Positions 5,032 through 62,953 of a stretch of 64,000 nucleotides of DNA are shown one piece after another. The stretch comes from Polyangiales bacterium (GTDB lineage: Bacteria > Myxococcota_A > Polyangia > Polyangiales > Ga0077539). The stretch spans positions 50,892 to 114,891 of the forward strand of contig JAXLYJ010000005.1 of NCBI GenBank assembly GCA_046351515.1, given 5' to 3'. The position numbers and the translations under genes were made by a program. The notes beneath the pieces were generated by a model. That model had not been told where the DNA came from and made no database searches. It saw only the letters and a list, made by a program, of their open reading frames with translations. Each line of letters starts with the position of its first letter. Within the stretch, counting starts at the first letter, position 1.

Positions 5032-6703
5032 TCAGTAGTACTGCTTGCGCTTGGCGCTCGAGAGGATGCCCATCATCTCGCGGTACTTCGCGATGGTCCT
5101 GCGCGCGATGATGATCTTCGACTGCTCTTCGAGCTTCTTGGCGATCGCCTCGTCCGAGAGCGGGTTCTTTGGGTCTTCTTCCGCGATGATCTTCTTGATC
5201 GCCTGCTTGACCGACTCGCTCGCGATGTCCTCGTCGGCCATGCGTCGGATCGAGCTGTTGAAGAAGTATTTGAGCTCGAAGATCCCGCGCGGCGTGTGGA
5301 CGTACTTGTTCGTCGTGACGCGCGAGATCGTGCTCTCGTGCATCCCGACGGTCTCGGCCACGTCGCGAAGGATCATGGGCTTGAGGTACTCGACGCCCTT
5401 CTCGAAGAACTCGTGCTGCTTCTCGACGATGCACTGCGTGACCTTGACGATCGTGCGCTGCCGCTGGTCGAGCGAGCGGACAAACCACCGCGCCGAGGCG
5501 AGCTTGTTCTGCACGAACTCCTTGGCCTTCGGGTCCTTCATCAACGCCTGCGCCTGCTCGACGTTGATCTTGAGCTTCGGCAGCCCGTCGTCGTTCGTCG
5601 TGACGGCGTACCCGTCCGAGGTCTTCACGACGTACACGTCGGGCGAGACGTACGGAGGATCTTCAGTGCTGAAGTTGCGACCCGGTCGCGGCTCGAGCGT
5701 GCCGATCAGCTTCGAGGCGTCGTACACGTCGTTGAGGTCGCACTTGAGGTCTTTCGCGATCGCCTGAAAATTGCGGCGCTCGATGTGCTGCAGGTGCTTG
5801 TCGATCACCTGCCAGACGATGGTCTCTTCGTCGTAGCCGAACGCCTCGGCTTGCACGAGCAAGCACTCGCGCAGGTCGCGTGAGGCGACGCCGACAGGGT
5901 CGAGCGACTGGATCAACCGCAGGACTTCTTCGGCGTCTTCGGGGTGCAGCCCGCTTCGCGCGCGAGGTCTTCGAGCGTGATCGTCTGCGCGCGCGGGACT
6001 TCTCGTTGGCGGCGATGTCCGCGGCCGAGAGGTTGGTGACCGGCTCTTCGGCCTTCTTCTTCTTCTTTTTGCCGTGCTCTTCGTCGTCGTCCGACTCGCT
6101 CGGCTCGTCCCACTGCGAGTGGCTCTCTTCGCGGTCGGCCTTCTTCTTCTTCTCGCGCTCCTTCTCGGGAGCGTCGCCGCGAAGCCGCAAGTAGCCGTTG
6201 TCGTCGAGGTTGTGCACGACGAGCATCGCGAAGGTCATCTCTTCGTTCGTGAGGTTCGAGAGACGAAGCTGGTCCATCAAGTGATCGGAGAGCGACGAGC
6301 GCGAGCTCAGCGTCGCTTCGAGCGAGGGCAGCTCTTCGCTCGACAAGCGGCCGCCGCCCGAGGGGACCGGCGCTTGATTGGCGTACGACTCGAGAAAGCG
6401 CTCCCAATACTCTTCTTGCTTGCTCTCGCTCGCCGCGCGCTTCTCTTCGTGGTTGTGCACCGCCTGCTCGCGGCGCTCTTCGAGCGCGGCGATGTCGTCG
6501 ATCGTCGGGGTCGAGTCGGCGTCCTTCGCGCGCGCCTCGCCCTCGGCAGCCTCGTCGAGAATCGGGTTCTCCGTGAGCTCTTCACGGATCTGATCGATCA
6601 GCTCGAGCCGAGACAGCTGGAGCAGTTTGATCGCCTGCTGCAGCTGCGGCGTCATCACGAGCTGCTGCGACATGTTCAGGCCGAGGCCGAGCTTCCCTTC
6701 CAT
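5032..6703 (-). CDS. rpoN: RNA polymerase sigma-54 factor
   Basis: N-terminal region I MEGKLGLGLNMSQQLVMTPQLQQAIKLLQLSRLEL, an acidic region II, then LIQSLDPVGVASRDLRECLLVQ and the C-terminal RpoN box ARRTIAKYREMMGI. Two single-base deletions near 5945 and 5990 split the gene between ORFs 5032..5916, 5913..6407 and 5663..7504. Confidence 0.9.
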
Positions 6704-9492: not shown

Positions 9493-11120
9493 GGCTGAGC
9501 CCGAAACCCCCGCGACCGAAAAGCCCCAGAGCTCCGTCGCGAAGAACGCCGCGATCACCTTCGCCGACGCTCGCGTCGCGCGTGCTCGGGATGTTGCGCG
9601 AGACGCTCATCGCCGCGACGTTTCCCACGGCGATCACCGACGTGTTCTTCGTCGCGTGGCGCGTGCCGAACGCGCTTCGGGCGTTGCTCGCCGAGGGCGC
9701 CGCGAGCGCCGCGCTGGGGCCAGCGTTTTCACACGCGCTCGAGCCCGAGAAGGGGCAGAGCGAGAAGAACATCCCTCGCTTGCGCGAGGTGCTCTCGCGC
9801 GTCGGCGGCGCGGCGTTCGTGGCGCTCGCGCTCGCGACGGCGCTCGGCGTGATCTTCGCACGGCCGATCTTTCAGCTCGTCTCGCACGGGTTCAACGGCG
9901 ACACGGCGCGCTTCGAGCTCGGCGTGACGTTGCTGCGCGTGCTGTTTCCGTTCTTGTTCTTGATGGGGTGGTTCAGCCTCGGACGCACGGCGCTCGAGCG
10001 ACTGGGAGACTTCACGACGGGGTCGAAGGCGAGCGTGTTGCAGAACGTCGCCTTCGTGCTCGCGCCGTTCTTGCTCGTGCCGATCGCGCCGTACGTGGGC
10101 GTGAGCCCGATCGTGATGATGGCGGTCGCGGCGCTCATCGGCGGGCTCTTGCAGGTGTTGTATTTGCGCCCGGCGCTGCGGCGACGGGGAGTGCTCGTTC
10201 GCCCGACGTTGGCCAACGATCCCGCGCTCTCGGACGTGTCCAAGACCTTCGTCACGATGCTCTACGGGCAGCTCGTCTATCAGGCGACGGTGATGCTCTC
10301 GGCGCGGCTGCTCGCCACGCTCGAGCCCGGCAGCGCCTCGTGGAACAGCTATGCCCAGCGCCTCGCGGACATCCCTCAAGGGCTCTTCACGGTCTCGCTC
10401 GCCGGCGCCGCGGCGGCCGAAATGGAGAAGGCCGCGGTCAAGCTCGACCGCGACGCCGTCGCGCGAACGTACGAGCGAACGCTCTCGCTGAGCGCCTTCG
10501 TCGCGATCCCGGCGTGCGTGCTGCTCGCGGTGTACGCGGACGCGATCGTGCCGCTCGTCTTTGGCTACGGGCGCTTCGCGCGCGGAGAAAACGCGGCGCG
10601 CAACATGTACGAGGTCGCCCGCTCGCTGCACTGGCAGGCGATCGGCGTCGGGCTGTTCGCGTTCGTGCACCCGACCAATCGAGTGTTCTCGGCGTTCAAG
10701 CGCCGCAAGCCGATCCTGACCGCCTCGACGATCGCGCTCGTGTCCTACGCGTTCGCGGGTGTGTGGCTCGCGCGCGTCCGCGGCCACGTGGGCGTCGCGA
10801 TGGCGGGAGCGATCTCGGCCGCCGTGCAGCTCGTGGTGCTGTTGTGGCTCGTTCGCAAAGAGATCCCGTTTCGGCCCGCGAACGTCGGCGAGTCGCTCGC
10901 GAAGGTGCTCGGCGCCACCGGCGTGACCGCGCTCGCCGCGGTCGCGGCCGTTCGCTGGCTGCCGATCGCGACGAACACGATTCTGTCCAAAGCGCTCGCC
11001 GTGATCGTGGGCGGTGCGCTGCTCGTGGTGTATGCCTTGGCCGCCTGGTGGCTGCGATGCGAAGAGGCGACCGAGATCGTGCGAAGGCTCCGACGGCGAA
11101 GACGCCCGCCGGAGCCGTGA
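9491..11120 (+). CDS. murJ: lipid II flippase MurJ (MviN)
   Basis: Full-length similarity to the MurJ/MOP superfamily (RVPNALRALLAEGA..., 12-14 TM helices, ~520 aa). The N-terminus MAEPETP...AKNAAITF is in ORF 9464 and switches to ORF 9582 at ~9575 after a +/-1 indel. Confidence 0.85.
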
Positions 11121-11993: not shown

Positions 11994-12880
11994 ATGTCGT
12001 TCGGACTGCTCGCTCCGCTCACCCTCGCAGCGCTCGCTTTTGTGACGACGTTGAGCCGTCCGCCGAGTCCGCCCGTCGTTCACTCGACGATTCGCGTGGT
12101 GGACGTGCGGCGCAGCGGCGCTCGTGGCGCGCGGCGCGAGCGTGCTCGACGCGCGCGACGCGGGAGCGTTTTCGAGCGGGCACCTTCCGGGCGCGCAGCT
12201 GTACGCCTGGTCGCTGTTCACGGGGACCGGTGCGCAGCGCGGCCGATTGCGCGCGGACCTCAGCTCGATCGCCGCCGGGCTCGCGGCGCTGGGCGTCGAT
12301 GAGTCTCGACCGACGCTGGTCTACGGCGCAGCTGGCACGGGCAACGGCGAAGAAGGGCACGCTGCGCGCGGCTGCTCGCGCTGCTGGGACACAACGACGT
12401 CGCGATGCTCGACGGCGGGATCGAAGCGTGGCGCTCTGCTGGGCGCCCTGTGGTCACCAGCGTGACCAGCGCTCGCGCGGGGCGGTTCTCGGCGCGCGTT
12501 CGTCCGGAGCCCGGGCGGACCGCGAGCTGGTCGCGTCGGGGCGCGCGCAGCTCCTCGACGTGCGAACGGCCTCTGAATTTGCAGGAACCGCGTCGGGAGC
12601 GGAGGCGCGGCGAGGCCACATTCCGGGCGCGCTTTCGATGGACTGGCGCACGGTGCTCGACGAGCGCGGCCGCGTTCGGCCGGCGCAGCGCCTGCGCGAG
12701 GCGCTCGAACACGCGGGCGTCGATGCGGGCGATCCGATCGTGCTGGTGTGCTCGAACGGCGTTCGCTCGGGCTTTGTCGCGTCGAGGCTCGCGGCGCGCG
12801 CTGTGGTTTCGGCCCGCGTGTACGACGGCGCGATGATCGAGTGGAGCGCGGACGAGACCGCGCCGCTCGCCGCCGGCTGA
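11994..12880 (+). CDS. tandem-rhodanese sulfurtransferase (SseA/thiosulfate sulfurtransferase-like), with signal-peptide-like N-terminus; four or more frameshifts
   Basis: Two rhodanese modules: VLDARDAGAFSSGHLPGAQ...PTLVYGAAG and LLDVRTASEF..GHIPGA...PIVLVCSNGVRS (catalytic Cys loop). Pieces lie in ORFs 11994, 12124, 12405 and 11981. Confidence 0.6.
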
Positions 12881-18519: not shown

Positions 18520-18727
18520 CGTGATTTGCACCGCGGTGTCTGCGAAGATGTTGCGAGCAAATTTCCAGGGATTGCGACGAAAACAACGAAACTTTGCCCT
18601 GACGAACGATCTCGTCGTGCGCTAGGCTATTGGGTGTCGACGATGTGTCGACCTGATGTCTCGCGAACGATGCGAGCCGCCGCTCGCGAAGACGTCGCGC
18701 AACCACTCCGATCCAGGAGGCACGAGC

Positions 18728-56063: not shown

Positions 56064-57961
56064 TCACTCGTCGAGGGCGAACTCGACGCGGCCGAGCGCT
56101 CCATCGGCGCTCACCACTCGAACGCGCACCGCCTGTCCGACGGTGAAGCTTCGGCGAGCGCCCTTCATGTGCGTCTCGCGCGCGTCGAGCGAGAACGGCC
56201 CTCCTTGAATCGTGTCGATCGGGATCGTCCCTTCGACGAACGAGGCGTCGAGCTGCGCGATGATCCCAAACGATCGCAGCCGCGTGATGCGCGCAGAGAA
56301 CTTCTGCCCGACGCGATCGGCCATGTACCGCGCGAGGATCATCTTGCGACGGTCGTTTTCAGCGCGCGTCGCGCCGCGAGCGCGCTCGTTGATGTGCCGC
56401 GCGAGCGCTTCGAGCGAGGGTCTCCGAGCGACCAGTCGCGCCGTCCTCGGAGGTATTGCTTGATCGTGCGGTGCACTTCGAAGTCCGCGTACCTGCGCAA
56501 CGGCGAGGTAAAATGCAGGTAGAGCGGCGCTGCGAGCCCGAAGTGCATCGAGGGCGTGACCTGATAGCGCGCCGGTCCCAGCGAGCGCAACAGCACCGCG
56601 CGGATCGCGGGCTCGTACGGAGAGCCGTCGATCTGCGCGTCGAAGGCCGCGAGCGACAGCGGGCTCAGCTTGGTCCCGAAGCCCGCCGCGTAGCCGAAGT
56701 TCTCGGCGATCTCGGCGAACTCGATCACCGCTTCTTCGCCAGGGATCTCGTGCACGCGCAAGAGCGACGGGACGCCGCGCTCGGTGAGCCATCGCGCGAT
56801 CGCCTCGTTGGCGGCGACCATGAAGCGCTCGATCATCACGTGCGCGCTGTTGGCCTTGTGCGCCTCGACCGCGCTCGCTTGTCCTGTCGCGGGATCGACG
56901 GTGATCTTCGCCTCGTCTTGCGCGATGCGAACGCCGCCGCGGCGCGCGCGAAACGCTCCCAATCGAGCGCTCGCGGCGCGAAACCACGGCATCGACCCGC
57001 GCACCTTGTCGACCGCCGGGCTCATCGCGCCCGAGTCGAGAAACGCCGCGCACTCGTCGTAGTCGAGCCTGGCGAACGAGCGGATCACCGACTCGTACAC
57101 GTCGACCGAGCTGACGTTGCCCTCGGGGTCGATGCGCATCTCGCAGGTGAGCGTGCGGCGATCGACCTCGGGGTGCAGTGAGAGGTGTCCCGATGAGAGC
57201 TCATCGGGCAGCATCGGCAGCGTGCGTCCCGCGAGGTACGTGCTCGTCGCGCGCGCGCGCGCTTCGCGGTCGAGCGCGGTGTCCTTCTCGATGAAGTCCG
57301 ACGGGTCCGCGATCGAGACGAACAGCCGCAGCGCTCCGTCGCGGTCCGCAGGAGCACAGAGATCGCGTCGTCGATGTCGCGCGTCACGGGCGCATCGACG
57401 GTCACCGTCGGGACCGCGCGCAGATCGCGCCGTCCTTCGAGCGAGTGCGGACGGCGGGCGAGGGCCTTGGCTTGCGCGAGCGCTTCGTCGCTCCAGTCGG
57501 TGAGGATGCGGTGCCGCGCGATCACGCGCGCGCGAGCGAGGGATCTTCGCCCGATCCCGTGCGCTTCTTCAGCTCGAGGCTCTGTCCGCGGATCGTGGCG
57601 ATCACGGTCTCGCCGGGCTCGACGTTTTGCCCGCGCGTGTCCAGCGGCCAGTCCGTGTTGCTCACCTCGCGGTCGACCTTCACGAACAGGGCGCCGCGGC
57701 GCGAGACCACTTCGCCGACGAGCTCGCTGCGCGGACGCTCGTAGAGCGTGAGGTCCGTGGCGCTCCAACGGCCGTCCTCTCCGCGCACGACGCACCCGGC
57801 GACGACGTCGTCCGAGAGAAAAGGATTGAGGGCCGGCGGCGCGATGAACGCGCGCAGGATGGACTTGGACTCTCCTCGCCATCCACTTCGAGAAAGCCGA
57901 AGCCCCTTGGATTCACAACGACGCGCCCCACCACGTCGCGTCGGTCTTGCATGTCACTCAT
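56064..57961 (-). CDS. RNase II/R-family 3'-5' exoribonuclease (cold-shock/OB N-terminus, RNB catalytic domain, C-terminal S1 domain); frameshifted
   Basis: N-terminus DVVGRVVVNPRGFGFLEVDGEE (OB fold) in ORF 57680..58063. RNB signature HFGLAAPLYLHFTSPLRRYADFEVHR in ORF 56339..57214. S1-like C-terminus FTVGQAVRVRVVSADGALGRVEFALDE in ORF 56064..57053. Confidence 0.7.
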
Positions 57962-58110
57962 TCGCCGCCGAGGGTGCGCACGAAGCGCGAAGAAGAAAAG
58001 CCCCTTCGCCCGCGGTCGATCGGCGATCGCCCACGGTCGGAGGGAGAAACGCCGAGAGATCACGGCCCCGCTCGAGCTCGATCGGGGCTGTGATTTCAGC
58101 GCTGGGTTGA

Positions 58111-59360
58111 TTACGTGGGCGCCTTCACCACGCCGATCGGGACGAGCTCGGTCACCACTTCGAGCAGGTCGCTTTGCGCCGCGATCACCGCGTCGACGTC
58201 TTTGTATCCGTGGCCGCGCTCGTCGAGCACGCCCGCGGGATCGTGCGTGACCAAGGTGATTCCCTTCTCGGTCATCTCGCGGAGCATCGACGCGGTGGCG
58301 TCGCGCTTGGCCGCTTCGGTCGCGTCCTTGTCGACGCGCGCGTAGCCTCCTTGTCGCGGAAGACCTCGCCGTTCTCGTCCTTCACGTACACCTTGGGCAT
58401 CATCTGCCCGCGGGACTTCTTGCGGCCCGCGCCGTGCGACACCGACGCGTGCGAGAGCGAGCAGCCCGTGCCGCGGCACAGAAAGCTCTTGGTCTCCATC
58501 GAGCCCGGGATCGTCACGTACGCGCCCGCCGGAGCGGACACTGCACCCTTTCGATGCACGTACACGTCGCGGCCATCCCAGCGCTCTTTCGACAAGAAGT
58601 TGTGGTGCGTCTGGACCACCATCGCGACCTCGTACGGACCGAGGACGTCGCCGATCGCGCGCTCGCACGCCGCTCGGATCAGCTCTCGGTTCGCCTCTGC
58701 GTATCGCAGGCAAAACGCTTGTTCTGCGAGGTAGCCGCGGCCCTCATCGCTGTCGACCGGCAAGAACGGAAACCCCTTCGGGTAGCTCGCGCCCAGGCGC
58801 TCGCACAGCTGTTCAGCGAGCGAGTGATAGTGACCGTTGACCGCCTGACCGAGGCCGCGCGATCCCGAGTGGACCATCACCCAGAGGTTTCCTTCGGAGT
58901 CCTTCTGCAGCTCGCAGAAGTGGTTTCCGCCGCCGAGCGTTCCGAGTTGACGCGAAGCGCGCGAGGCGTTCTTCGCGACGACCGGCTCGATCGAGTCGGT
59001 GAAGGACGGCATCGCCGTCGACTCGTTGTCGTTGATGAGCTTGCAGACCGCGTCGTTCACGCGGGCCAGGATCTTCGCGGCGATCGAGGGCGAGACGACC
59101 GCTGCGCGCAGCGACGTCTTCATCAAGATCATCCCGCAGCCGATGTCGCCGGAGATCACGTCGGGCACGATCAGGTTCTCCGTTCCGAACACCGTTCCGA
59201 TCGGAACTCCCTTTCCCGCGTGAGCGTCCGCCATCAACGCGAGCTCACCGACGATCGACGGCAGCTCGGCGATGCGCTCGATCTGCTCGATGGCGTTCGC
59301 GTCGAGCTCCTGCGCGAAGATTCGAACCGTCTTTCCGTTGGGCGTCGTGTGCAGCTTCAT
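58111..59360 (-). CDS. rtcB: RNA-splicing ligase RtcB (3'-phosphate/5'-OH RNA ligase)
   Basis: MADAHAGKGVPIG, GGNHFCEL, and the HGAGR active site with its conserved His in ORF 58272..59360. After a frameshift near 58350 the C-terminus YKDVDAVIAAQSDLLEVVTELVPIGVVKAP is in ORF 58111..58713. RBS GGAGGAAC. Confidence 0.9.
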
Positions 59361-59500
59361 GGTGTTCCTCCGTCACTCGTGGGTGACGCGGAGGACAACT
59401 TCACGATGCGTGCCGAGGCCGCGGGCACAGATTCTACACATCAAAGCGAGATGCCGTATTGTTTTGGATATAGCGAAGTATTCAAATGGATAGATGCGCC

Positions 59501-60111
59501 TCAGCGCACGCGCTCGACCGCGCCGTCGCGCACTCGCAGCACGCCGTCGCACCACGCGATGAGCTCTTCATCGTGCGTGGCGACGAGCGCCCCCGACGGC
59601 CGCTCGCGCAGCTCGTCGAAGAGCGATCTGCGCGCGTCTCGATCGAGCCCGTCGCTCGGCTCATCGAGCAGCCACCACGGGGGCTCTCGACGCGCGCCAT
59701 CAACAAGTGCGCTCGCTTGCGCTGTCCCAGAGAGAGCGTTCGGTACCGCTGCGCGCCGATGAGCTCGATCGTCGCGCGCGACCGTTCGTCCTGCGGAACC
59801 TCGCTTCGACGCAGCCCCGCGCACAGCTCGACGAGCTCGTTGACCGTCAGGTGCTCGGGATACGACGGCTCTTCGGGCACGATCGCGCATCGTCGCTGAA
59901 GCTCGTCACGATCGCGCGCGAGCGAGCGCCCGTCGATCTCGACCTCGCCGCCGCCGTGGTCGATCGCTCCGATGATCGCGCGCAGCAGCGTGGACTTGCC
60001 GCTTCCGTTGGCGCCGACCACCGCGAGCAGACCGCGGGGCCACTCGAGGCTCACCGAGTCGAGCACGAGCCGATGGCCCAACCGCACAGAGAAGTCTCGC
60101 ACTCGAATCAT
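59501..60111 (-). CDS. ABC transporter ATP-binding protein (CcmA-like, ~203 aa)
   Basis: Walker A GANGSGKST, signature LSLGQRKR, Walker B WLLDEPSDGLD, H-loop ATHD; across ORF 59482..61152 (N-terminal part) and 59501..59890. The ATG overlaps the permease stop (ATGA). Confidence 0.7.
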
Positions 60112-61152
60112 CGTCGCACCGAAGCCGCCAGCGCGAGCGCGACGAGCACGCACGCCGTGACGACCGACTGAGAGGGAGTGGCCACGAGCGCGAGGATCAC
60201 CGCCGCGATCGTGCAGAGCACCGCGGCGCCGCCCGCGTCGATCTCGCGCCGCGCGCACTGCTCGACGCACATCGCGACGGCGAGCCACTGCGCAGCGAAC
60301 GCGAGCGCGGCGAGCAGCGAAGCGCGAACGCCGAGAGGGCTCGCAGCGATGCTCGCGCAGCTCGCTCCGACGAGCGACGGCAGCGCCCACGTCGCGATGC
60401 GGCCTGCGCGTCGAGCGGTGGACCGTGCGCCGGGCTGCGTCGCGAGCACGAGCGAGAGCGACTGCTCGGACTCGCGAACGACCGTGACGATCGCGGCCGA
60501 CACCGCGCCAGAGGCCACGAGCAAGAGCACCGTCGCGAGGCTCGATTGCGCGGTCGGCGCGATGCGCGTGTTGAAGACGGCGATCGTGGACAAGAGCGTC
60601 GCTGCGAGGGGAGCGCCGCGGATCGCGCGAGCGGCGACGGGGCGACGCGCGCGGCGAAGCGGAGGTGGGCGACGAGCAGGCCGCTCGGCGAGGGCGCGCT
60701 GCGCGTGGGCGCGCTTCGAGCGCGCGGGCGATCGAGCGAAACGCGAGGGTCGCGAGGGCGGCGACGAGCGCGGCGAGAAGGCCCACGAGCGCTCCTTCGC
60801 CGCGCGCGAAGAAGGCGCCGACGATCGCGTGGGGAGCGAGCGTGGGGGCGGTGAGCGTCGCGAATCGGTCGAGCGACGAGAGCGGCAGCGCGCGAACGAA
60901 CGCGAGCTCGTCGCGCTCGAGCACGCGCGCGGCGCGGACGTGCACGACGGACCACAGGGCGAGGGCGAGGGCGGCGATCGCGGGGGTCGCGCGCAGGCCG
61001 CGAGTGATGTCGCGCGCGTCGAGCCCGTTGGGGCCGAGGAGCACTGCGCCGAACACGAGCAACGCGAGCCACAGCCCAGCGAGCTTTGCGATGACGGAGC
61101 GAGCGACGATCGAGGCGAGCGTGAAGCGCGCGCGGAGCGCGGGCGAGGGCAC
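60108..61152 (-). CDS. ABC transporter permease / polytopic membrane protein (frameshifted)
   Basis: Hydrophobic multi-TM translation from the GTG/ATG at 61152 (MPSPALRARFTLASIVARSVIAKLAGLWLALLVFGAVLL...). It continues in ORF 60108..60593 (MSTIAVF...LVALALAASVRR) and is translationally coupled to the ATPase. Confidence 0.45.
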
Positions 61153-61198
61153 GGCGGAGTAACGGGCGGAGGGCGGGGAGTGTTCCGAAAGGGAAAGA

Positions 61199-61332
61199 GG
61201 TTTTGTAGAGTGAGGGGACGGTGTTCAAAAGTTCATTTGTTGGTCTCAACGCGACTCAACGGCCCCTGCCACTGAGCCAAACTGAGACCAACAAATGAAC
61301 TTTTGAACACCGTCCCCTAGCTCTACAAAACC
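61199..61332. promoter_or_regulatory. 134-bp AT-rich element: two ~50-bp near-perfect inverted repeats (48/50) around a 34-bp spacer, in the rtcR / ABC-rtcB divergent intergenic region
   Basis: Left arm 61199-61248 ggttttgtagagtgaggggacggtgttcaaaagttcatttgttggtctca. Right arm 61283-61332 is its reverse complement except tga/cta. Each arm holds GTTCA-N3-GTTCA. The spacer carries TGGCAG-N5-GTTGA on the minus strand. GC ~42% against ~70% for the window. Confidence 0.6.
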
Positions 61333-61378
61333 CCCTCGGAACGCCGTCGCTCGTTGCGATACGCTGCCGCTCGCCGCG

Positions 61379-62953
61379 ATGGCCGAGCCCCGCGAGAGAG
61401 TGCTGATCAGCGTCGTCGGGCAGCGCTTCGACGCCCCCAAGCAATGGAGGCCCACGCTCGTCTGCACGATGCACCCCGAGGTCGTCGCGTTCGATCGCGT
61501 GGTGCTCATCGAGCAGCCCGGCGCCGAGGTCGTGACCGAGATGCTCATCCGAGACATCGAGCGCGCGAACAAGGGGCGCTCGATCGCGTGCGAGCGCGTC
61601 GCGATCGACCTGAAGAATCCCTGGTCGTTCGAGGAGGTCTACGCGAAGTTCTACGCGTTCGCTCGGGCGCGATCGTGGCGCGAGCGCGACGAGCACTACG
61701 TGCACATGACGACCGGGACGCACGTGATGCAGATCGTCTGGTACCTGCTCGTGAGCGAGCGCTTCGTCCCTGCGAAGCTCGTGCAGAGCGCGCCGCCGAA
61801 GGGACGGGACCGCGCGGATCTCGGCGCCCTCGACGTGGTGGACCTGGATCTGTCCCGCTATCCCTCGATCGCGCGGCAGCGACACGCGCAGCAGCTCGAG
61901 GGCGAGTCGCTGCTGAAAATGGGGATCGAGACGCGGTCGCCTGCGTACAACGCGGTGATCGAGCGGCTGCAGAGGGCGGCGTTGGGACCGGCCGTTCCGC
62001 TCTTGTTGTGGGGCGAGACCGGCGTGGGAAAGAGCGCCCTCGCACGCCGCGTGTACGCCCTGCGAAAACAGTCGCGCTCGATCGCGGGGCCGCTCGTCGA
62101 AGTGAACTGCGCCACGCTGCGCGGGACGCTGCGAGAGAGCGCCCTCTTCGGCCACAAGAAGGGCGCGTTCACCGGCGCAGACCGCGATCGAAAGGGCTAC
62201 CTGCGCGCGGCCCACGGCGGAATGCTCTTTCTCGACGAAGTCGCCGAACTCGGCCTCGAAGAGCAAGCCATCTTGCTCACCGCCATCGAAGAGGGCCGCT
62301 TCTATCCCTTGGGCGCCGACGAGCCCGAGCGCTCGCAGTTCGCCCTCGTCTGCGGAACCAACCGCGATCTGCGCGCCGAAGTCCGCGCTGGACGCTTTCG
62401 CGACGACCTGCTCGCGCGCATCAGCACCTGGTCCTTTCGCTTGCCCGCCCTGCGCGAGCGCCGCGAAGACATCGAGAGCAACGTCCGCTTCGAGCTCGAT
62501 CGCTTCACCGAGACGTACCGCTCGAACGCGCGCTTCTCTCGCCCCGCGCTCGCGAAGTACCTCGCGTTCGCCAAGAGCGACGAGGCGCGTTGGCCCCATA
62601 ATTTCAGGGACCTCTCGCAGAGCGTGCTTCGAATGGCCTCGTCCGCGAGCGAAGGGCTCATCGACGTCGACGACGTGGCGCGCGAGATCGCAACGCTGCT
62701 CGAAGCGTGGGGACCGGTCGCCGAGCTCGCCGTTCCTGCGCGCTCGCCGGAGGACCGCTCGCGCGATCGCGTCGATCAAGTGCTGGTCGAGACCGTGATC
62801 GCGGCGCTGCGACGTTCGAAGTCCCTCGCGGCCGCCGGACGTCTGCTGTTCGACGGTGAAGCGAAGGCTGGCCGATCGGTCAACTACTCGGACCGCGCGC
62901 GAAAGCTCTGCCTGCGGCTCGCGATCGATCCCGCTGCATATTTAGCAAGATGA
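61379..62953 (+). CDS. rtcR: sigma-54-dependent transcriptional activator RtcR (CARF-type N-terminal domain, AAA+ sigma-54 interaction domain, C-terminal HTH)
   Basis: Collinear with E. coli RtcR along its whole length: KQWRPTL, HMTTGTHVMQIVW, LDLSRYPSIA, GETGVGKSALARR (Walker A), VEVNCATLRG, GAFTGA (GAFTGA loop), ARISTWSFRLPALRERREDIE, AKSLAAAGRLLF. Confidence 0.9.
   Translation: MAEPRERVLISVVGQRFDAPKQWRPTLVCTMHPEVVAFDRVVLIEQPGAEVVTEMLIRDIERANKGRSIACERVAIDLKNPWSFEEVYAKFYAFARARSWRERDEHYVHMTTGTHVMQIVWYLLVSERFVPAKLVQSAPPKGRDRADLGALDVVDLDLSRYPSIARQRHAQQLEGESLLKMGIETRSPAYNAVIERLQRAALGPAVPLLLWGETGVGKSALARRVYALRKQSRSIAGPLVEVNCATLRGTLRESALFGHKKGAFTGADRDRKGYLRAAHGGMLFLDEVAELGLEEQAILLTAIEEGRFYPLGADEPERSQFALVCGTNRDLRAEVRAGRFRDDLLARISTWSFRLPALRERREDIESNVRFELDRFTETYRSNARFSRPALAKYLAFAKSDEARWPHNFRDLSQSVLRMASSASEGLIDVDDVAREIATLLEAWGPVAELAVPARSPEDRSRDRVDQVLVETVIAALRRSKSLAAAGRLLFDGEAKAGRSVNYSDRARKLCLRLAIDPAAYLAR

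Follow-up and report, generated by a model that had tools for sequence, protein, structure and literature searches.

The spacer directly upstream of rtcR in this Polyangiales MAG is occupied by a long palindrome of low GC content, which raises the question of whether the palindrome is a control site of the Rtc RNA-repair locus or a piece of foreign DNA that has come to lie beside it. The first-pass annotation of the window, by which is meant the whole 64,000-nt (64-kb) stretch of DNA analysed, had offered both readings: an unusually long dyad operator or upstream activating sequence (UAS) for RtcR, and the insertion of a transposable element of the miniature inverted-repeat type (MITE). Comparison with related loci and with predicted regulatory sites elsewhere in the window suggests that the hairpin is probably an orphan, MITE-like and compositionally foreign palindromic insertion, present in one lineage and without a role as an RtcR site.

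The genes and sequence features on which this reading is built are given in Table 1. A two-gene operon, hereafter the cassette, encoding a membrane protein and an ABC ATPase lies between rtcR and rtcB, and a gene for an RNase II/R-type (RNB) protein follows rtcB on the same minus strand; the single "ABC" open reading frame described earlier is in fact these two cassette genes. The membrane protein has just five homologues among 5.8 billion proteins. The cassette is located between rtcR and rtcB in three of its five other contexts, and this gene order suggests that it is linked with the Rtc RNA-repair locus in Polyangiales.

Table 1. Coordinates of genes, promoter motifs and palindrome parts at the rtcR locus, as positions in the window.
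Feature	Position	Strand	Description
rtcB	58111-59360	-	416 aa in relatives; 1 frameshift near 58351
Sigma-54 (-24/-12) promoter of rtcB, TCGGCACGCATCGTGAAG	59399-59416	-	Predicted; 19.6 bits, top site in window
AT-rich ATATC/GATA-rich block	59417-59500		Likely RtcR UAS; upstream of rtcB promoter
ABC ATPase gene	59501-60111	-	203 aa in homologues; 1 frameshift, at GGGGG run near 59682
Membrane-protein gene	60108-61152	-	345-348 aa in the 5 known homologues; no Pfam/NCBIfam family; 2 frameshifts here
ECF-sigma-type promoter motif GGAAC-N17-CGTT	61161-61186	-	8 nt upstream of membrane-protein start codon; directly abutted by hairpin
Outer pairing block GTTCCGA	61182-61188		Partner of 61336-61342; complement GGAAC is -35 box of cassette promoter
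Core palindrome, 134 bp	61199-61332		Arms 61199-61263 and 61268-61332, 65 nt, 86% complementary
Degenerate dyad centre	61249-61282	-	6 transition differences, all G.U on minus strand
Weak sigma-54-like motif GTGGCAGGGGCCGTTGAG	61255-61272	-	Hairpin tip; 7.8 bits, rank 9 of 127,966
Outer pairing block TCGGAAC	61336-61342		rtcR side, 36 nt upstream of rtcR ATG
rtcR	61379-62953	+	CARF-type RtcR domain, sigma-54 AAA+ domain, lid; intact

No other inverted repeat in the 64 kb comes close to the hairpin in length, the runner-up having GC-rich arms of 29 nt. Between its outer arms (61199-61248 and 61283-61332), 48 of 50 positions are reverse-complementary, exactly as first described, with the two mismatches at position pairs 61211/61320 and 61212/61319, and a GTTCA-N3-GTTCA repeat is indeed present in both arms (61223-61235 and its mirror). 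The 34-nt spacer that had been placed between the arms is not a spacer, as the symmetry runs through it to give 65-nt arms around a 4-nt gap, and with small indels the dyad can be followed outward to the GTTCCGA and TCGGAAC blocks for a total of 161 bp (61182-61342). As the GGAAC in these outermost pairs belongs to the native sequence, the ends of the element are uncertain (134, 147 or 161 bp). The GC content of the 134-bp element is 49.3% (arms 44%, centre 65%) rather than the ~42% estimated at first, in a window of 68.8%; nor is it the sole AT-rich island besides 59361-59500, as low-GC stretches at 18539 and 11823 come down to 52%, although the hairpin is still the lowest-GC 134-mer of the window.

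The element is non-coding: its only open reading frames are mirrored 25-aa frames arising from the palindrome itself, and it carries no transposase gene. A fold of a transcript through it, which had been proposed as a check, gave a very stable structure (plus strand, -112.8 kcal/mol; minus strand, -117.9 kcal/mol), compared with approximately -43 to -49 kcal/mol for shuffled sequences (z -16 and -17); none of 200 shuffles equalled the real hairpin, and folding as DNA gave a z of -16.9. A T-rich tract, TCTTTCCCTTT, lies 3' of the stem on the minus strand only. A simple scan of the hairpin identified neither a sigma-70-type promoter nor an intrinsic terminator, and no Rfam 15 covariance model assigned it to a family, the only matches being sub-threshold likenesses to miRNA hairpins (24.8 and 21.3 bits, where the gathering score is 80).

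Several known kinds of structured element were considered and set aside. Rtc loci of Salmonella carry Y RNAs; at the present locus, a Y RNA or tRNA-like RNA was rejected on the basis that there is no Rfam match, no tRNA or tmRNA called in the hairpin by ARAGORN, and no Rsr gene nearby. A retron msr/msd region was rejected as no reverse transcriptase is adjacent, an integron attC site as the RYYYAAC/GTTRRRY ends are absent by eye, and a protelomerase target as the dyad centre is the least symmetric part of the palindrome. Candidate outward sigma-70 promoters in the arms (TTGAAC-N15-TACAAA) have poor spacing and a poor -10 element, in addition to the negative scan.

Evidence for an insertion comes from the orthologous spacers of related loci. 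In the three loci in which the cassette lies between rtcR and rtcB as it does in the window, the spacer from rtcR to the cassette is 64 bp (L008), 64 bp (L009) and 57 bp (L010), and in L011, where the cassette follows a GST-like gene rather than rtcR, it is 65 bp. The fifth cassette, L007, lies away from these genes, in a genome with adjoining rtcB and rtcR (L005 and L007 are both from GCA_016793325.1). The corresponding spacer of the window is 226 bp, and removal of the 161-bp palindrome leaves 65 bp, the length found in relatives, which identifies the hairpin as an insertion. The flanks of the hairpin align to the relatives with the hairpin block missing there, base for base on the side of GGAAC-N17-CGTT. 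L008, L009 and L010 lack the hairpin in the orthologous spacer, as do L011 and L007 in the sequence upstream of the cassette, and overall it is missing from nine of nine related rtcR or cassette loci. These comparisons suggest that the palindrome is confined to the lineage of this Polyangiales MAG, as an insertion in a divergent promoter spacer of ~65 bp, while the distance of the related loci (membrane-protein identity of 49-70%) bounds the time of insertion only poorly.

The comparison also identifies the promoter beside which the hairpin lies. All cassettes, whatever their left neighbour, have a GGAAY-N16/17-(C/A)GTT motif 8-10 nt before the membrane-protein start codon, which resembles in form the GGAAT-N18-GTT promoters of ECF sigma factors of the SigR/SigH group. 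The hairpin abuts the -35 box (GGAAC) of this motif, and it is this native GGAAC that its outermost pairs use. It had been placed between rtcR and the target promoter of RtcR; its position is instead between rtcR and the ECF-type promoter of the cassette. In relatives, the GGAAC box is surrounded by a small native inverted repeat (TTCnCCGC..GCGGnAA), and the hairpin may have landed inside this small palindrome. In L007, the gene directly upstream of the cassette (5240-5839) encodes a 199-aa protein with a GerE-type HTH and sub-threshold matches to Sigma70_r4_2 and ECF sigma factors; this protein may regulate the GGAAY..GTT promoter or serve as its sigma factor.

The involvement of native sequence in the outermost pairs allows for a second explanation of the palindrome, namely that it was formed in place without a transposon, when template switching during replication made an inverted copy of ~70-80 bp of spacer DNA, either acquired or evolving rapidly, beside the native GGAAC. 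The outermost block (TCGGAAC, minus strand) is native promoter sequence present in relatives that lack the element, and the palindromy extends over the entire element and not just its ends, both as expected of such a process. However, the arm sequence has no counterpart in the spacers of relatives, such that a foreign insertion would be needed first in any case, the low GC content favours an outside origin, and the small native inverted repeat around GGAAC could equally be an insertion target. Formation in place is also consistent with the failure of the searches described below to find a target-site duplication, another copy or a parent; all told, it is considered unlikely, and insertion of a foreign palindrome is preferred.

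Other palindromic sequences were observed in related loci. L005 contains an unrelated element of ~290 bp (12030-12400) with 107-nt inverted repeats (86%) and a lower-GC interior, flanked on one side by four tandem copies of a GC-rich 27-28-nt repeat. It lies in a 650-bp gap between two genes that are 5-9 bp apart in L002 and L003, and its presence in a gap that is short in these relatives indicates that palindromic insertions occur in the clade. A single intergenic region of L007 contains two copies (10612-10647 and 10784-10819) of a GC-rich 36-nt palindromic unit (CCCCTCTCCCGCGG..CCGCGGGAGAGGGG) that looks like a REP-type repeat.

Whether the inserted sequence can be called a MITE depends on its copies, its ends and its parent. 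By the published definition, MITEs are under ~200-400 bp, have no transposase, have terminal inverted repeats, form a stem-loop as RNA, generate a target duplication and exist as dispersed copies (PMC3184786). Set against this definition, the hairpin has the small size (134-161 bp), the lack of a transposase, the inverted repeats, the stable RNA stem-loop and the presence/absence at orthologous sites; a target-site duplication and a parent insertion sequence were not found. No second copy was detected in the 64-kb window with blastn-short, and nhmmer recovered no diverged copy from ~130 kb of related loci, so that the search of relatives for dispersed copies suggested by the first-pass annotation came back empty. 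A 21-mer from the arm core, searched as an exact word, had 0 matches in 185,579 species genomes, a single chance match in JGI metagenomes, and none in viral contigs; as not even a self-match was obtained among the species genomes, the source MAG lies outside that collection. The pattern at the arm tips, GGTTTTGTAGAGNNAGGGGAC, likewise searched as exact words, matched the 185,579 species genomes once, by chance, and viral contigs not at all. The JGI match (L006) was dismissed as a word inside a coding region of a low-GC contig, and the genome match (L012) as part of a Lewinellaceae coding region without an inverted repeat.

A search with blastn against plasmids and phages revealed no copy and no parent; a 33-nt match to mobC of a Hymenobacter plasmid (E = 0.1) was dismissed. 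Peptides translated from the hairpin matched nothing among 5.8 billion proteins. Species genomes, viral contigs, plasmids and phages thus yielded no parent insertion sequence with the same inverted-repeat ends, with the qualification that the genome and viral-contig searches used exact words only, which diverged parents could escape. Over all plausible boundaries of the element, the best candidate for a target-site duplication is 4 bp (GGAA), a length reached or exceeded in 211 of 300 shuffled flanks and the mode of the shuffles, and a symmetric 3-bp CCG repeat at the hairpin flanks is also at the level of chance. The earlier MITE reading therefore holds as far as an insertion is concerned, given the absence at orthologous sites, the restored spacer length, the foreign GC content, the long repeats and the non-coding sequence, whereas the target-site duplication and, in searches to which the source MAG was external, the several copies that it implied were not found. 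The hairpin is best described as MITE-like and orphan, with no assignment to any family.

The reading as an operator is answered largely by the location of a better candidate for RtcR control elsewhere in the locus. In E. coli, the RtcR UAS, an IHF site and the -24/-12 element are located directly upstream of rtcBA (PMC9650030). A conserved YGGCAYG-N3-CGTGAA motif is found ~40 nt upstream of rtcB in six related loci (L001, L002, L003, L005, L010 and L013) and in the window, with ATATC/GATA-rich sequence beyond it in those relatives. A weight matrix for sigma-54 promoters was constructed from these six relatives only and applied to 127,966 positions of the window, where 59399-59416 ranks first and the second-best site scores 12.7 bits. 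On the strength of the motif conserved in relatives, the top matrix score and the match with the E. coli layout, the AT-rich "gap" at 59361-59500 is predicted to be the RtcR-dependent control region, within which 59417-59500 is, by position and conservation, the likely RtcR UAS. In four of the relatives (L001, L003, L005 and L013, with 72-81% RtcR identity), rtcB and rtcR are directly divergent and 147-165 bp apart.

Two further features of these control regions and intervals were noted. The rtcB promoter of the clade has a conserved, non-canonical -12 element, with GG-N9-TGA rather than GG-N9-TGC, and this distinctive element reads CGTGAA. The interval between rtcB and rtcR also varies in content among the relatives: it is empty in the four loci with directly divergent genes, holds two unknown genes of 347 and 785 aa in L002 (2507-5934), and holds the cassette together with two unknown genes (157 or 151 aa; 346 aa) in L008 (7835-9393) and L009.

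The idea of a long dyad operator or UAS, whether for RtcR or for another regulator, draws on the position of the hairpin directly upstream of rtcR and on its dyad symmetry with the GTTCA-N3-GTTCA repeats in each arm. Against it, the hairpin is missing from every related locus retrieved, the conserved promoter of rtcB lies elsewhere, together with the AT-rich block upstream of it (59399-59500), and the foreign composition is unlike that of a native operator. A palindrome with 65-bp arms is also several times longer than the known sites of enhancer-binding proteins. An operator function is accordingly given very little credence. The regulation of the Rtc locus, which had been thought to be decided at the palindrome, is instead assigned to the predicted rtcB control region, which is intact 1.8 kb from the hairpin, and RtcR is not predicted to act at the hairpin itself.

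The two strands of the hairpin are not equivalent, and this asymmetry brings in a further possibility. The dyad differs at 11 of 67 positions, seven of which are transitions, and the six central transitions without exception read as G.U in the minus strand and as A.C in the plus strand. Because all six pair as G.U there, the minus strand folds into a stem of 62 bp capped by a 4-nt loop, at -102.7 kcal/mol versus -95.2 kcal/mol for the plus strand. The polarity of the six central transitions has a two-sided p of ~0.03, which becomes ~0.125 when the outer transition of opposite polarity is included (6/7). This G.U polarity hints either that the minus strand has been under selection as RNA or single-stranded DNA, or that deamination was biased towards one strand.

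Were selection responsible, the hairpin would be a functional, strand-specific structured element, with its minus-strand 62-bp stem maintained for processing or stability of a transcript, as a block to transcription, or as the carrier of a tip promoter through which RtcR would control the cassette. Such a function would account for the uniform G.U polarity and the stronger minus-strand fold, and the presence of the T-rich tract past the stem on the minus strand only would agree with it. The tip motif, ranked 9th of 127,966 positions, also has a chance of only ~2% of occurring in a 161-nt element. On the other hand, there is no homologue and hence no covariation to compare, the polarity weakens to a p of ~0.125 with the outer transition counted (6/7) and could be the product of strand-biased deamination, and relatives use the same cassette without the hairpin. 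On the minus strand, the sequence upstream, which is antisense to the start of rtcR, shows no evident promoter, and simple scans found no promoter or terminator. The sigma-54-like TGGCAG-N5-GTTGA sequence reported earlier does exist at the hairpin tip, but as a promoter it is not convincing: it scores far below the 19.6 bits of the rtcB site, the register of its -12 element is off by one base, and the window contains eight other sites with an equal or higher score. The motif is probably a chance occurrence, and selection on a functional hairpin is regarded as very unlikely.

An error of assembly or library preparation was also considered as the source of the palindrome. The sequence is known from one assembly only, and the adjacent 5.9 kb with its eight frameshifts could mean a locally poor consensus. 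The flanks of the hairpin nevertheless continue in the correct synteny and with the expected spacer length, and the arms, unlike those of foldback chimeras, are imperfect, at the 11 differing dyad positions, and are not copies of local sequence. To our knowledge, the hairpin bears no resemblance to any sequencing adapter. An artefact is thus deemed highly improbable, and the palindrome is treated here as an authentic insertion.

The frameshifts themselves are restricted to 56067-61152 of the minus strand, all eight falling within a row of four adjacent genes downstream of the hairpin: at ~60712 and ~60605 in the membrane-protein gene, ~59682 in the ABC ATPase gene, ~58351 in rtcB, and ~57865, ~57524, ~57352 and ~56419 in the RNB gene. 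One of the eight has a homopolymer context. The five flanking genes (cupredoxin, h283, protein kinase, rtcR and NIF3; ~4.6 kb) are without frameshifts, and the chance of such a split is ~0.01. The frameshifted operon reflects either recent decay or a locally poor consensus; if the frameshifts are real, the locus would be one caught in decay.

Taken as a foreign insertion, the hairpin allows a sequence of events to be proposed. A foreign, non-coding palindrome of ~134-161 bp would have been inserted into the ~65-bp divergent spacer between rtcR and the membrane-protein/ABC operon. It most likely originated as a non-autonomous mobile element, or is what remains of such an element, as the long inverted repeats, the absence of an open reading frame and the very stable stem-loop constitute a MITE or foldback architecture, from which its mobility is inferred. 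In relatives, the two divergent promoters have a common spacer of ~60 bp. The insertion would have shifted rtcR by 161 bp from this divergent promoter region, and the native rtcR promoter has probably been displaced, since just 36 bp of native-like sequence remain upstream of the ATG. The -35 and -10 elements of the cassette would have been left intact. A minus-strand transcript, if made, would fold into a duplex of 62 bp, which might be cleaved or might obstruct transcription.

The hairpin offers an example, from an uncultured myxobacterium, of what appears to be a foreign palindromic insertion splitting a compact divergent promoter region, and its study corrects the map of the locus by placing the predicted RtcR control of rtcB at 59399-59500 and not at the hairpin. 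The palindromic insertion is new and so far single-copy, yet of a known general kind. Nothing relevant to MITEs in myxobacteria was found in a search of the literature; if more copies were present in the full genome, they would constitute a new repeat family in a group for which such elements were not found in the literature. It appears quite unlikely that the hairpin is either a single-copy, strand-specific structure recruited to control rtcR and the cassette, for example as a sigma-54-type tip promoter or as an insulator separating the two divergent promoters, or the first member of a new Polyangiales MITE family; in the case of a strand-specific hairpin, a tip promoter would let RtcR also drive the membrane-protein/ABC cassette.

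Among known systems, the hairpin can be compared with several families of short palindromic elements. REP and BIME sequences are likewise intergenic palindromes and can themselves be insertion targets, although REPs are ~20-40 nt, GC-rich and highly repeated, whereas the hairpin is 134-161 bp and AT-rich for its genome. The Correia elements of Neisseria (CREE/NEMIS) exist in many copies and have duplicated target sites, inverted repeats of 26 bp, documented promoters that point outward and a site for IHF (PMC3184786). They resemble the hairpin in being ~104-157 bp, non-coding and bounded by terminal inverted repeats, in forming a long stem-loop, and in often lying 5' of genes, where they can change promoter architecture (PMC3184786). 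Unlike Correia elements, the hairpin was found in one copy, with no duplication above chance, arms of 50-65 nt, no sigma-70 promoter in the scan and no sequence similarity to them. ERIC sequences are closer in form, being imperfect palindromes of ~127 bp with dyad symmetry over nearly their whole length that are intergenic, vary in presence or absence between relatives and form hairpins in transcripts (PMC3184786). They are, however, multi-copy, TA-flanked and confined to Enterobacteriaceae and relatives, while the hairpin has no detectable copies, TA flanks or sequence similarity to ERIC. As for regulatory sites, the hairpin shares with the E. coli RtcR UAS of rtcBA a location in the neighbourhood of rtcR and rtcB; the UAS, IHF site and -24/-12 element of E. 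coli are, however, directly upstream of rtcB (PMC9650030), and their predicted equivalent in this clade is the region at 59399-59500 rather than the hairpin.
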